DNA of 64,000 nt from contig JAJNBM010000002.1 in the NCBI GenBank assembly GCA_021156165.1, forward strand, positions 792-64,791. Reading direction: 5' to 3'. How positions within the stretch are numbered: position 1 is the first letter of the stretch; each line of letters starts with the position of its first letter. Origin of the DNA: Gammaproteobacteria bacterium (GTDB lineage Bacteria; Pseudomonadota; Gammaproteobacteria; UBA1113). Below the pieces are notes generated by a model, which made no database searches, was not told the DNA's origin, and worked only from the letters and a program-made list of their open reading frames with translations. Positions 18,098-38,907 of this stretch are shown here, piece after piece. The translations under genes were made by a program, and so were the position numbers.

Positions 18098-18479
18098 GGG
18101 GGCGACCTGGTTTCGACGTGGGTTGCAAAACCTAAGGCGCATGTCGAGGATGTAGCTCACCTCGTAAATCACGCTGCAATTAAAGTAATCGCAAACGACG
18201 AAAACTTTTACGCTGTTGCCGCTGCTTAGTCAGTGGCTTGCTGCTTAAAACACAGCACGGCGCCAGCACCCTAGCCCGCCTGTGGGCTTACGGTGAGGGT
18301 AATACAATACAGGACCGCTGACGAAAGTATGCCCTACTGAGTCAGTTAAATTTAGGGCTTCGCTGCTGAGGATCCTGCCGATTGGAGCCTAAGTAGTCAA
18401 ATTAAATAATACGGCTAAACATGTAGTGCTAAGGGCGGAGAATTTACGGACGCGGGTTCAATTCCCGCCGCCTCCACCA
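18098..18479 (+). ncRNA. ssrA: tmRNA (SsrA, transfer-messenger RNA)
   Basis: 5' GGGGGCG pairs with the 3' CGCCUCCACCA acceptor stem, including a G3·U wobble as in tRNA-Ala. T-arm GGGTTCAATTCCCG. Internal tag ORF GCA AAC GAC GAA AAC TTT TAC GCT GTT GCC GCT GCT TAG = ANDENFYAVAAA* at 18191..18229. Ends in CCA. Confidence 0.93.
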
Positions 18480-34574: not shown

Positions 34575-35912
34575 ATGCTAAACCTCCTACAAAATTGGCC
34601 TATTCTGGTGTTCCCTGCCTTATTGTTGCTTTTATTTTCTCTAGAAAAAAAACCGCGTTTTAGCAACAACCTACGGATTTTTATAAGTTTAATTTTAGGT
34701 ATCCTTAGTGGCATGCTGTTAAATTATTTTCACTCCCATTTAACGCCTTTTAGCAATCAATTCATTGGCCAATCCTTAACCTTAGTCAGTGATGGTTATA
34801 TGGAACTGTTACGCATGTTGGTATTGCCCTTAATATTGACATCTATTATTCATGCTTTTATTCATTTAGGCGATCACCCCGGTGAAATTATCGGTAAGTT
34901 ACTTTCGCGCTCGGTAGGGTTACTCTTGCTATTAACAGCAGTGGCCTCGGCCCTAGGCATGGCCGTAGGCTTGTGGTTGCACGTAGGACAACAATTGTCT
35001 TTGCCCAGTGATGGCCCCATTCCCGCTCATCACTACACGGGCTTAGTCGATACGCTATTAGGTATGATCCCCAGTAATCCCATTGCCGCCATGAGCAACG
35101 ACAATACCGTCGCTATTGCTATTTTCGCCTGCTTACTCGGTATCAGCGCTTTACAGATCTATAAAAAGGAAAGGCAGCATGCCGAAAATTTTAAAGATTT
35201 CATTACCTCAACTTTCCATATGGTTAAACAATTGGCGCGCTTAGTGATTCGTACTACCCCTTACGGTGTGTTAGCCTTACTGGCTAAAATCAGTAGTACT
35301 CAAGGCTTCCATACCTTAATAGGCATCGCTCATTATTTGATCGCTATTCACATCGCTGTCATTTTGGTATTTATATTACAAATCATTTTAATCGCTCTCT
35401 TCGCACGCCTATCCCCCTGGGCTTATTTGAAAAAAGCCTACCCTACTTTATTGGTTGCTTTCACGACTCGTTCTAGTTTTGGATGCTTACCGTTAAGCGA
35501 AGAAACCTTACACGATCGCTTCAAAGTGTCGCAGCTCACGGCAAGTTTTGTACCCAGCATGGGTGCCACCTTGGGCATGAGTGCTTGTGCCGGTGTCTTC
35601 CCTGCGATGTTAGTAGTGATGGCCTTAGCAGTAACCCACCAACCGATGACTGTTTCTATTTTCCTAATGGTGATGTTTATCAATACCATCGCCTCACTGG
35701 GCATTTCCGGTATTCCAGGTACTGCTTTTGTGGCCGCAACCGTAACCTTAACCGCTATGGGATTGCCCTATGCCGTAGTGGGTTTGGTGCAAGGGGTAGA
35801 CAGCATTGTAGACATGAGCCGTACAGCAACCAATGTGAACGGCACTTTGGCAACGGCGATTATTGTGGATAGGGGACTGGTTCCGGCAAATGTTCCAACA
35901 CCATCTCTATAG
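34575..35912 (+). CDS. Dicarboxylate/amino acid:cation symporter (SDF/DAACS family)
   Basis: Polytopic membrane protein with …LLVAFTTRSSFGCLPLS…, which matches the SDF AF-x-T-x-SS-x-A-x-LP motif. Confidence 0.7.
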   Translation: MLNLLQNWPILVFPALLLLLFSLEKKPRFSNNLRIFISLILGILSGMLLNYFHSHLTPFSNQFIGQSLTLVSDGYMELLRMLVLPLILTSIIHAFIHLGDHPGEIIGKLLSRSVGLLLLLTAVASALGMAVGLWLHVGQQLSLPSDGPIPAHHYTGLVDTLLGMIPSNPIAAMSNDNTVAIAIFACLLGISALQIYKKERQHAENFKDFITSTFHMVKQLARLVIRTTPYGVLALLAKISSTQGFHTLIGIAHYLIAIHIAVILVFILQIILIALFARLSPWAYLKKAYPTLLVAFTTRSSFGCLPLSEETLHDRFKVSQLTASFVPSMGATLGMSACAGVFPAMLVVMALAVTHQPMTVSIFLMVMFINTIASLGISGIPGTAFVAATVTLTAMGLPYAVVGLVQGVDSIVDMSRTATNVNGTLATAIIVDRGLVPANVPTPSL

Positions 35913-36744
35913 TCTTATCCATCGTTGCAGCATAATTCGATGAAAAAGTACCTTGGGCGCGATTGGCCACAATGACATTCACCGATAAAGCACGATGGCC
36001 CATCAATTGGCTTAAACCATAAATACCCGAAGTTTCCATTTCAAAATTAGTCACGCGTTCATTTTGATACCGAAACGCTCTTAATCTATCTAATAAACCT
36101 GTAAATCGTGGGACTAAACGCACTCGTCTTCCCTGTGGCGCATAAAATCCAGAGCAGGTTGCTGTCATGCCTGCGCCATCGACATACGGTGCATAATGTG
36201 CCAGTAATTCTTTGTCAGCAGAAGCTACATAAGGATGCAAACGTTCTTCAGCAAAAAAATCCGCCAATGCATCTTCTACTGGCTGATCCAGGGGCGCTGC
36301 GCTGGCGCGATAATATTCTAATAAATTGTCAAAGCCTATGGCGCGTGCCGATAAAAGGACGCTATCAACTTCTGTTTCGGCTTGCAAGGCCCCGCTTGTA
36401 CCAATACGTATAAAAGTTAAAGAAGTTAATTTGTCTTTGATCCGCCGTGTTTTTAAATCCACATTCACTAAAGCATCCAATTCAGTTAAGACTATATCAA
36501 TATTATCCGTGCTCATGCCGGTTGAAATCACTGTCAAATGATGTTTTCCTATCCAACCACTGTGCGTAATCATTTCACGGTTTTGTTGTCGCACTTCTAT
36601 TTTATCAAAATGCTTTGACACTTTTTCTACCCGATTGGGATCCCCCACTAAAATAACCGTGGGCGCTAATTCCTCAGGCAATGAATTCAAATGATAAATG
36701 CGGCCATCGGCTGTTAAAATTAAGTCTGCTTCTGAAATATACAT
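35860..36744 (-). CDS. Phosphorylase family-1 (PNP/UDP/MTAP-type) nucleosidase/phosphorylase
   Basis: …FIRIGTSGAL… and the …FEMETSG… C-terminal motif of the PNP_UDP_1 fold. Confidence 0.5.
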   Translation of the reverse strand: MYISEADLILTADGRIYHLNSLPEELAPTVILVGDPNRVEKVSKHFDKIEVRQQNREMITHSGWIGKHHLTVISTGMSTDNIDIVLTELDALVNVDLKTRRIKDKLTSLTFIRIGTSGALQAETEVDSVLLSARAIGFDNLLEYYRASAAPLDQPVEDALADFFAEERLHPYVASADKELLAHYAPYVDGAGMTATCSGFYAPQGRRVRLVPRFTGLLDRLRAFRYQNERVTNFEMETSGIYGLSQLMGHRALSVNVIVANRAQGTFSSNYAATMDKTIEMVLEHLPEPVPYPQ

Positions 36745-36773: not shown

Positions 36774-36832
36774 CCGTAGGCGGGCCCCTGTGCCCACCTT
36801 AGGGCAGGCACGGGCGTCTGCCCCTACGATAC
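36774..36832. repeat. REP-like palindromic element, copy 2
   Basis: TAGGCGGGCCCCTGTGCCCACCTTAGGGCAGGCACGGGCGTCTGCCCCTACGAT. It lies immediately adjacent to MITE copy B. Confidence 0.8.
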
Positions 36833-36842
36833 CAATCTGTAT

Positions 36843-37000
36843 GGTCTGTAGCCATTGGGTTTATCGGCTGCAAAATGAATAAAGCGGTCCAAATATTAGC
36901 AAATTTTCGTCAAATATAGCCCGATATTCTCTTCAAATTTACTAAAATTTTGCCCGGCTTTATTCATTTTTCGCTTCGACAAACCCAATGGCTACAGACC
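36843..37000 (+). mobile_element. MITE-like element, copy B (158 bp, perfect 17-bp TIRs GGTCTGTAGCCATTGGG … CCCAATGGCTACAGACC)
   Basis: Perfect terminal inverted repeats. There is no ORF. About 85 % identical to the reverse complement of 21576..21743. Confidence 0.75.
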
Positions 37001-38044
37001 CTATTGTAATTTTAACAATTGCCAATAACGAGAGATCGCGTCTAAGGCGTCATCATTAATGTCGGTTTGAAAGTAACCCTGTGTTATAACTTTTGGACCG
37101 GGGAAAATCACCGCATTATTCGCCAGTGTAGGCGGTAAATACGCCAGCGCTGCCTGGTTTGCAGTGGGATAAAAGGTTTCTGTGACTTGTAATGCCGCTA
37201 TTTTTGCTTGCATTACGTAGTTTAAAAATTTATAGGCATTCTCTTGGTGCGGGGCATTCTTAGGAATAACAAAGGAATCCACCCAAATTACAAATTTGTC
37301 TTTAGGATAGATAAATTCTATATCTGGGTTCTGCAAGCTTGCTTTATAGGCATCCGCGTTCCATGCCATGCCTATAGTGACATCTTCATCTACCAACAGC
37401 GAGGGCACAGAGCTACTATTGTACAGACGTACATTAGGCAATAAAGCCACCAAGTTTTGATACGCATCTTGCAAATGCTGCAAATTATTTTCGTTAGGAG
37501 AATAGCCCAAAGTCATTAGGCCTACATTAAATACTTCTCGAGGATCATTTAACAACAACAGGGAATCGCGATATTTAGGAGACCACAGATCCGTCCATTT
37601 TTCAATTTTATCGTGGGGATAGTACTTACGATTGACAAAAATGCCTGTTAAACCCCACACCCAGGGAATGCTGTATTCGCCTTTAGGATCGTAATCGGGA
37701 TGGGTAAACGCCGGATTTAAGTTTTTATAATTAGACAAACGGCTCGTATCGATTTTTTCTATCATATCTTCGCGCGCCATCCGAGTAATATAATAGCTAG
37801 ACGGTTCCACTACATCGTATTGCGTATCCTTACTCGCTGCCTTCATTTTCGCATACAATACTTCATTGCTGTCGAAGGTAGAATAGTTGACTTTAATGCC
37901 CGTGTCTTGTTGAAATTGCTGAACTATTTTAGGTGATAATTCTTGGGACCATGCAGAGACATTGACCACATTGTCGTCGGCCATGGCTGTGGTACAAAAT
38001 AAGCTTAGACTTAAAAATAATCCTTTGTATCCAATACGCTTCAA
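37001..38044 (-). CDS. potD: Spermidine/putrescine ABC transporter periplasmic binding protein
   Basis: PotD/PotF-family homology after a signal peptide …LFLSLSLFCTTAMA. The probable start is the TTG at 38044. The track ORF to 38176 reads through a REP element. Confidence 0.75.
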   Translation of the reverse strand: MKRIGYKGLFLSLSLFCTTAMADDNVVNVSAWSQELSPKIVQQFQQDTGIKVNYSTFDSNEVLYAKMKAASKDTQYDVVEPSSYYITRMAREDMIEKIDTSRLSNYKNLNPAFTHPDYDPKGEYSIPWVWGLTGIFVNRKYYPHDKIEKWTDLWSPKYRDSLLLLNDPREVFNVGLMTLGYSPNENNLQHLQDAYQNLVALLPNVRLYNSSSVPSLLVDEDVTIGMAWNADAYKASLQNPDIEFIYPKDKFVIWVDSFVIPKNAPHQENAYKFLNYVMQAKIAALQVTETFYPTANQAALAYLPPTLANNAVIFPGPKVITQGYFQTDINDDALDAISRYWQLLKLQ

Positions 38045-38058
38045 GGTGCGTATTATCC

Positions 38059-38117
38059 CGTAGGGGTAACCTCCGGTGGTTGCTCCTCTAGGGCAGGCAC
38101 GGGGGCCTGCCCCTATG
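38059..38117. repeat. REP-like palindromic element, copy 3
   Basis: CCGTAGGGGTAACCTCCGGTGGTTGCTCCTCTAGGGCAGGCACGGGGGCCTGCCCCTATGC. Confidence 0.8.
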
Positions 38118-38136
38118 CTCTTTACGAAAGGTATTT

Positions 38137-38907
38137 TCATATCTTCTTCTGCCTCGTGACCCATTGTGACAAACAAACCAATAGCAACGTCAGTCCAAAC
38201 AATAAACTACACAGTGCATTCAATTCTACATTAACCCCTAAGCGGGCTAAGCCAAAAATCTTGATGGGTAAGATTTCAAAACCAGGGCCTGAAACAAAAT
38301 AGCTAATGACGATATCATCGAAAGACAAGGCAAAGCATAACAAGGCCCCTGAAATAAGTGCTGGCAATAGTATAGGCACAATAATATGCCAGAAAGTCTG
38401 CAATTCACTGGCGCCCAAATCACTGGCGGCAGCAAAAATATTGGGATCGATGCTTTTTGCGCGGCTATACACAATAACCACCACGAAGGGGATACAAAAA
38501 GTAACATGAGCGATGTACAAGGACAAAAAGCCTAAGGACAAACCACTTAAGGAGAATAAGATTAACAACGCAATACCCAGTACAATATCGGGCGTGATAA
38601 TAATTACAAACAGCAGCCCTTCTAACATATTTTTACCGCGGAAACGATATCGATATAAACTAATCGCTGCCAAAGTGCCAATAAACAGTGCCGAAGCCGT
38701 TGCCGCTATCGCTAAGTACAGCGAATGCCATACTGCAATCCATAAATTGCTGTCATGCAACACTTCCTTATACCAATTTAAGGTAAAACCATGCCACAGC
38801 ATAGAAAATACCGCATTATTAAAAGAATAGACGATCAGCGTGCCTATAGGAATATATAAAAAAAGATAAATGAGTGCTAAATAAGAGAACCTAAATGACC
38901 GATTCAT
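38137..38907 (-). CDS. potC: Spermidine/putrescine ABC transporter permease
   Basis: 6-TM permease with an EAA-like loop. It overlaps potB by 17 bp. Confidence 0.8.
   Translation of the reverse strand: MNRSFRFSYLALIYLFLYIPIGTLIVYSFNNAVFSMLWHGFTLNWYKEVLHDSNLWIAVWHSLYLAIAATASALFIGTLAAISLYRYRFRGKNMLEGLLFVIIITPDIVLGIALLILFSLSGLSLGFLSLYIAHVTFCIPFVVVIVYSRAKSIDPNIFAAASDLGASELQTFWHIIVPILLPALISGALLCFALSFDDIVISYFVSGPGFEILPIKIFGLARLGVNVELNALCSLLFGLTLLLVCLSQWVTRQKKI

Follow-up and report, generated by a model that had tools for sequence, protein, structure and literature searches.

A probable TA-flanked, hairpin-forming MITE family in an uncultured Legionellales-like lineage

[quoted passage not shown] Flanking TA dinucleotides are a general property of these elements, as exemplified by Correia, ERIC and RUP (PMC2229807), and TA is also the dinucleotide duplicated by IS630/ISY100 (PMC2170065). 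Here we analysed a pair of related repeats in a 64,000-nucleotide stretch of metagenome-derived DNA (hereafter, the window), which an earlier note, made from the sequence alone, had taken for a MITE family. The window is 100% identical to a contig from a JGI metagenome (L005) and to a Logan contig (L006). The closest named homologues of the glutathione S-transferase (GST) encoded in the window come from Legionella and Tatlockia (59% identity), and genes for ankyrin-repeat and IcmF-type proteins lie in the neighbourhood; the host is therefore regarded as an uncultured Legionellales-like bacterium. We find that the two repeats belong to a dispersed family that is probably a genuine TA-flanked MITE, most similar to bacterial MITEs of the IS630/Tc1-mariner type.

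Both repeats were found where the earlier note had placed them, at 36843–37000 and as the reverse complement of 21576–21743. Family-wide alignment shifted the limits of the first repeat, copy B, outward by one base per side, giving a 160-bp element at 36842–37001 (plus strand) with intact ends, a near-perfect hairpin structure and an E value of 1.8e-47 in a profile search (nhmmer); its first base is a T, and the family consensus at this position is G. Copy A (21576–21743, minus strand, 168 bp) is older and decaying: as noted before, one of its ends is degenerate, and it also contains an 8-nt internal duplication, has lost its terminal pairing and folds with only about −50 kcal/mol. The previously estimated identity of ~85% over ~160 bp agrees with 88% over 135 nt in a repeat search of the window and with 86% when the flanks are taken into a MAFFT alignment. 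The 17-bp terminal inverted repeat described for copy B, GGTCTGTAGCCATTGGG, is exact at both ends, and the perfect run in fact extends to 20 bp, with 24 of 25 positions matching. Across the window, this 17-nt motif has two exact occurrences, both in copy B, and a third one, differing at two positions, at an end of copy A, giving three matches against 0.12 expected by chance.

Both copies are intergenic and, in line with the original description, devoid of coding capacity: spurious open reading frames (ORFs) of 43–45 aa run over copy A, and copy B has no ORF of at least 40 aa. Copy B is enclosed by the stop codon of potD (37001–38164, minus strand), which encodes a spermidine/putrescine-binding protein, and the start of a nucleoside (uridine-type) phosphorylase gene (35860–36744, minus strand) downstream of potD. 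The potD stop codon (37001–37003) falls on the junction with copy B, and on the other side the element adjoins a REP doublet (about 36774–36828; families D1/D2), so that the reported contact with both a REP and the 3′ end of potD was borne out; the REP doublet is not part of the element. Copy A lies between the GST gene (20827–21513, plus strand; MCD6044935.1) and a gene for a 335-aa protein that starts at 22095; an equally long 335-aa neighbour in locus L032 has DUF1016/YhcG Pfam matches.

Copy A is bracketed by a direct duplication of ~100 nt, with a left unit at 21475–21575 and a right unit at 21795–21902 (both plus strand). This local duplication is what could be said for reading the two window copies as leftovers of a segmental duplication, or their resemblance as chance. 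Against such a reading, the similarity between copies A and B ends at the element limits and their flanks are unrelated, the end motif is far more frequent than chance would give, and ten more independent sites are found in other genomes. We give this explanation almost no credence, and the earlier proviso that the MITE reading would fall if only two copies existed and flanked a segmental duplication does not apply. The duplication units themselves are 65–70% identical and absent elsewhere in the window and in the fetched loci. The left unit stops exactly at the boundary of copy A and overlaps the GST gene over its final 13 codons; the window GST is 7 aa longer than its homologues.

The REP next to copy B is one of seven copies in the window, at 8168–8207, 9504–9565, about 36774–36831, 38059–38120, 55104–55165, 55450–55511 and 56810–56871. 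They form hairpin doublets with the core GGGCAGGCACGGGGGCCTGCCCCTACG and GTAG motifs, and are likely to be a REPIN-type repeat. The copy at 38059–38120 (minus strand, potC/potD junction) falls within the 5′ end annotated for potD, where the window PotD ORF encodes 387 aa compared with 350 aa in relatives, the extra 37 residues running in frame through the REP; either potD starts downstream or its signal-peptide region has been altered. A 59-nt direct repeat (86% identical) abuts a REP at 9562–9620 and recurs about 50 nt from another at 56698–56756; a larger, composite repeat may include the REP. Other features of the window include an 88-nt inverted repeat (33010–33097/33237–33324) with 74% complementary arms 139 nt apart, and a nest of diverged inverted repeats at 58839–63605 (164 nt, 72%; 138 nt, 70%; 62 nt, 82% complementary), which suggests either paralogous genes in inverted orientation or an extended palindromic arrangement. 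A tmRNA gene at 18098–18479 gave a full-length Rfam match of 204 bits and was the only feature of the whole window to reach an Rfam gathering score.

Beyond the window, the family comprises further copies at unrelated loci. Together with the window pair, these make 11 full copies, besides which there are a partial copy, at a contig end, and a solo end; they are spread over at least eight metagenome assemblies or metagenome-assembled genomes (MAGs). The nine full copies outside the window are located in L018 (in the spacer between a pterin-4a gene and tolQ), L026 (two copies), L028 (two copies), L029, L030, L031 and L001. Elements are 160–161 bp long (138–168 bp in decayed copies) and, in the aligned copies, end in GGGYCTGT...ACAGRCCC; the inverted ends are perfect over 20–21 bp in copy B, L018, L028b, L026a and L030.

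Scans for exact words of DNA were nearly insensitive to this family. Among 185,579 representative genomes, a set to which the window's own MAG evidently does not belong, an exact 20-mer found one true copy, L001, in a MAG from Lake Mendota, and none in any other genome of the set. Three metagenome 20-mer matches (L002–L004) were set aside as chance, all of them lying within coding sequence that, judged from its translation, presumably encodes a beta-ketoacyl-ACP synthase. Further copies were reached through contigs around PotD homologues and by using the peptides of spurious ORFs on the element as protein bait; an initial peptide-profile search yielded P0121 only, and a HMMER search of cluster representatives yielded P0122–P0126. 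These peptides belong to no family other than the remaining element copies, and some of the spurious ORFs read through from or into adjacent genes. The final copy count was obtained by running the nhmmer profile over all fetched loci.

Searches for the element in other collections were negative. In Rfam, it matched only models of microRNA-precursor hairpins, at 41 bits against gathering scores of at least 200, and neither plasmids (blastn) nor viral contigs (scan) contained a match. Nothing equivalent was found in the literature searched. Together with the single match among representative genomes, these results are consistent with the description of the family as previously unnoticed, and, as far as public data show, it is confined to an uncultured Legionellales-like clade.

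Both of the 20-kb loci that had been fetched on account of a single copy contained a second one, a hint that each genome holds the element in substantial numbers. Two independent short-read contigs, L006 (which stops at window position 36968) and L013 (at 17173), end inside the element, as is expected of multi-copy repeats, and MAGs of the clade probably under-represent the repeat.

Several of these loci carry features of their own. A solo 21-nt end, GGGCCTGTTGGCATTGGGTTT, lies at 6320–6340 of L013 (minus strand), followed by TA and adjoined by a terminator-like hairpin, 9 nt from a GST stop codon; it looks like the remnant of a deleted copy. We considered whether this solo end and copy A, both beside a GST gene, represent one ancient insertion, and rejected this because the two GSTs are only 26% identical. 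In L026, from a related MAG (9766–10023, and 10001–10567 with protein P0122), an element lies between sdhE and a ygfX/cptA-like gene and supplies the sdhE stop codon, and a called 188-aa ORF starts at the end of sdhE, crosses the whole element and enters the downstream gene. In L029 (228–555 of a 650-bp contig), an ORF for the ThiI N-terminal domain runs directly into an element copy, reflecting either an insertion within thiI or a mis-assembly at the repeat. The tail of P0125 (L030) reads like another translated repeat, and a motif in a 536-nt spacer of L007 (5729–5760, GGAGCCTGTCATTGCGAGCAAATGAG) resembles a different short dispersed repeat.

Comparison with related genomes revealed orthologous sites that lack the element. 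The spacer between potD and the phosphorylase gene is 256 bp in the window, where it holds the element and the REP, versus 17–19 bp in seven contigs of relatives (loci L007–L012 and L022–L024) whose PotD is 90% identical to that of the window; L013 and L025 likewise have no element at this site. A copy does occur elsewhere, in L018, in the clade whose potD site is empty, so the family is present there even though this particular site is empty. Similarly, the spacer beyond the GST gene measures 279 nt without the element in L032, whose GST is 78% identical to that of the window, versus 581 nt with copy A in the window, the L032 spacer being too diverged and locally rearranged to be aligned base by base with the copy A site. 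At the empty potD site, the left side ends in a single TA; the right side is unalignable because a REP has also inserted there. Together, the small size, lack of coding capacity, inverted ends, dispersal, absence from orthologous sites and TA on both flanks support the MITE reading put forward in the earlier note.

TA borders the element on the right in 10 of 12 copies, against a background TA frequency of 0.071 in these loci. On the left, 6 of 11 copies have TA and another two (A and L018) have TAA; TA stands immediately at both flanks in 6 of 11. For copy B, the left TA is at 36840–36841 and the right TA at 37002–37003, and copy A is framed by a direct TAA repeat (21573–21575 on the low-coordinate and 21744–21746 on the high-coordinate side). 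Exceptions are L028b and L026a, with TTACAAGA instead of TA directly at the left end, and the decayed L001. No direct repeat beyond TA was detected in the flanks of the aligned copies. We infer a duplication of TA rather than a mere preference for it; as no empty site aligns on both sides, TA may instead belong to the inverted repeat.

The junctions with genes follow a recurrent pattern. In three genes, namely potD, a 118-aa ORF in L013 and a carbamoyltransferase gene in L028, the stop codon TAG consists of the flanking TA and the initial G of the element; in potD, read on the minus strand, it is formed by the right TA and the terminal C of copy B at 37001. Two more stop codons, of sdhE and of an rluB-like gene (both in L026), are found a few bases into the element. 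Where the TA of a stop codon (TAA or TAG) is the target, the G of the element would rebuild TAG and leave the protein intact. Because the initial G recreates TAG, copy B and two others can begin exactly at stop codons, and such insertions may persist in a tightly packed genome because, with TAG restored, they would be harmless.

Palindromy, which the earlier note had described only for the ends, extends over the entire element, and each strand folds into one long hairpin. Folding, which had been recommended as a check, gave −67 and −80 kcal/mol for the two strands (z = −11.5 and −12.4). Folding energies are about −50 to −54 kcal/mol for the two decayed copies and −52 to −93 kcal/mol for the remaining nine, all well below the means of shuffled sequences (−23 to −34 kcal/mol). 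Covariation was scored on the alignment of the 11 full copies, in which the consensus hairpin comprises 58 pairs. Standard pairs account for 94.9% of cells, and 26 of the 58 pairs show double-sided changes (69 cells). None of 500 column shuffles reached the observed values of pairing or covariation, and sliding the partner column by 1–3 positions reduced pairing to only 36–50%. Covariation is strongest at positions 9–19 of the ends, hereafter the terminal box, where a copy's own two arms match, on average, at 10.2 of 11 positions and the same arm in different copies at 5.7 of 11. The features conserved across copies are the outermost 8 bp, a number of internal loops and one G–T pair. In the decayed copies A and L001, box pairing falls to 6 of 11, with a fold of about −50 kcal/mol. 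Since these old copies have lost pairing, arm complementarity is not kept in resident copies; it is a property of lineages still spreading.

Terminal sequence recognition by a transposase alone leaves this arm covariation unexplained. It could arise through co-evolution of the ends with lineage-specific transposases or, by analogy with what has been proposed for REPINs, through a need for pairing during transposition. Template switching within quasi-palindromes is a third possible source of such covariation.

A more novel explanation would have the element move while folded, in the form of a single strand. A structure-specific enzyme (of the RAYT or IS200/IS605 HUH type, or an integrase-like recombinase) would read the base of the hairpin, at which both ends come together, and selection would act on pairing rather than on sequence, in line with a proposal for REPINs. 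In its favour, covariation extends over the whole stem and includes transversion-type double changes with few one-sided intermediates, and the terminal box is near-identical within copies and different between them. Pairing has been lost in decayed copies and would thus be kept only in spreading lineages, and, as noted above, conservation extends to internal loops and a G–T pair. The same type of compensatory change occurs in REPIN hairpins (PMC3116915), and a REP family with GTAG motifs (CGTAGGGGCAG) is found in the same window. On the other side, symmetric TA flanks are the hallmark of DDE-type Tc1/IS630 insertion. Such flanks would not be expected of IS200/IS605 or RAYT elements, which insert beside a one-sided target that they are not known to duplicate. 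The element ends lack a conserved GTAG head, and the gene lists of the fetched loci hold no RAYT or Y1/HUH gene adjoining any copy; the covariation could equally come from end–transposase co-evolution or template switching. We therefore regard movement as a folded strand as unlikely, and a specific version of it, in which the ends would meet at the foot of a 160-nt hairpin and arm pairing, a few conserved loops and the 8-bp foot, instead of a terminal sequence read by a transposase, would make up the recognition signal, as improbable too. If true, the element would represent an as yet undescribed kind of structure-dependent mobile DNA, flanked by TA and resembling REPINs or attC sites.

The hairpin could also serve the host, the repeats being genes or regulatory sites for structured RNA, such as an RNase III target or an mRNA-stabilising hairpin, rather than selfish DNA. 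On both strands the hairpin is predicted to be very stable, and it covaries; copy B is situated within what in relatives is a tightly packed potABCD–phosphorylase string, and effects on mRNA are known for the hairpins of other bacterial MITEs (PMC2229807). The orientation of the copies to flanking genes is, however, mixed (about six sense and five antisense), and a hand count of the pair table gave roughly 19 G–U versus 15 A–C mismatches, two conserved wobble positions excluded; mixed orientation and balanced mismatches therefore disfavour a strand-specific RNA role. Scans of the element for promoter, terminator and IHF consensus sequences found none, and it corresponds to no Rfam family. Orthologous sites in close relatives are without copies, coding sequence is overlapped or broken in L026a, L026b and L029, and the resident copies A and L001 decay instead of staying conserved. 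A host function of this type is thus very unlikely.

Returning to the TA-flanked MITE, we suggest the following course of events. The family would consist of non-autonomous elements of 160–161 bp that encode no product and whose halves are inverted copies of each other. Insertion would take place at TA dinucleotides, the target signature of IS630/Tc1-mariner-type transposases. Given the TA flanks, an IS630/Tc1-type transposase is the best guess for the mover, which would be encoded elsewhere in the genome. Neither the window nor ~194 kb of related, non-redundant DNA contained a detectable transposase or full-length insertion sequence with these ends, no transposase was found near any element copy, and a search of the window and these related loci for paired ends 0.1–4 kb apart recovered MITE copies only. 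Spreading copies would keep their arms complementary, and long-resident ones, such as A and L001, would decay. The element may also influence the genes beside it.

The family adds a sequence-defined MITE to a poorly known, uncultured Legionellales-like lineage. It accounts for some oddities in annotation and assembly, including spurious ORFs of 60–190 aa, altered gene ends and contig breaks, and the re-creation of TAG illustrates how a TA-targeting element can directly adjoin genes, with no bases in between, in a compact genome and do them no harm. Covariation and its loss in resident copies provide a small, clean dataset on whether the palindrome of a MITE is selected in transposition or is a by-product. 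These findings leave current understanding intact; arm covariation and insertion at stop codons are neat rather than surprising.

Finally, we compared the element with the systems it resembles most. Like the IS630/Tc1-mariner-type MITEs RUP of Streptococcus pneumoniae, Correia/NEMIS of Neisseria and ERIC of enterobacteria, it is 100–200 bp long and non-coding, has terminal inverted repeats accompanied by TA (in those families as TA termini or a duplicated TA), pairs its 5′ and 3′ ends into one long stem-loop and resides in intergenic DNA, often at the 3′ ends of genes (PMC2229807). It differs from them in having no recognisable sequence similarity (with the one true 20-mer match in 185,579 genomes), no IHF site, a palindrome that covers the whole element and documented covariation of the arms. 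RUP has a cognate insertion sequence, IS630-Spn1; no such partner was found for the element in the window and the ~194 kb of related DNA.

With REPINs, the element shares a non-autonomous nature, two inverted halves that form a hairpin, common compensatory changes and singlet remnants, to which the solo end in L013 may be compared (PMC3116915). Unlike them, it is longer (160 bp), has symmetric TA flanks and shows no RAYT gene nearby. GTAG is present in the window copies (CTGTAGCC) and replaced by GTTG, GTCG or GTCC in the other copies, whereas REPs have a conserved GTAG head.

MITEs are also described from a related host order, the Legionellales, in the form of QMITE1 and QMITE2 of Coxiella burnetii (PMC5896051). 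QMITE2 is 150–190 bp long, is found mainly in 3′ untranslated regions and overlaps the 3′ ends of genes by a few bases, as our element does, and QMITE1 copies can likewise be read as short ORFs (PMC5896051). Judged by the published text, which gives no sequences, QMITE2 has direct repeats of 7–11 nt and QMITE1 is 300–400 bp long with repeats of 2–4 nt (PMC5896051). Our element has TA, and its 20-mer had no true match in any representative genome besides that of L001. Together, these comparisons place it as a new family of a familiar class, that of small, TA-flanked, hairpin-forming bacterial MITEs.
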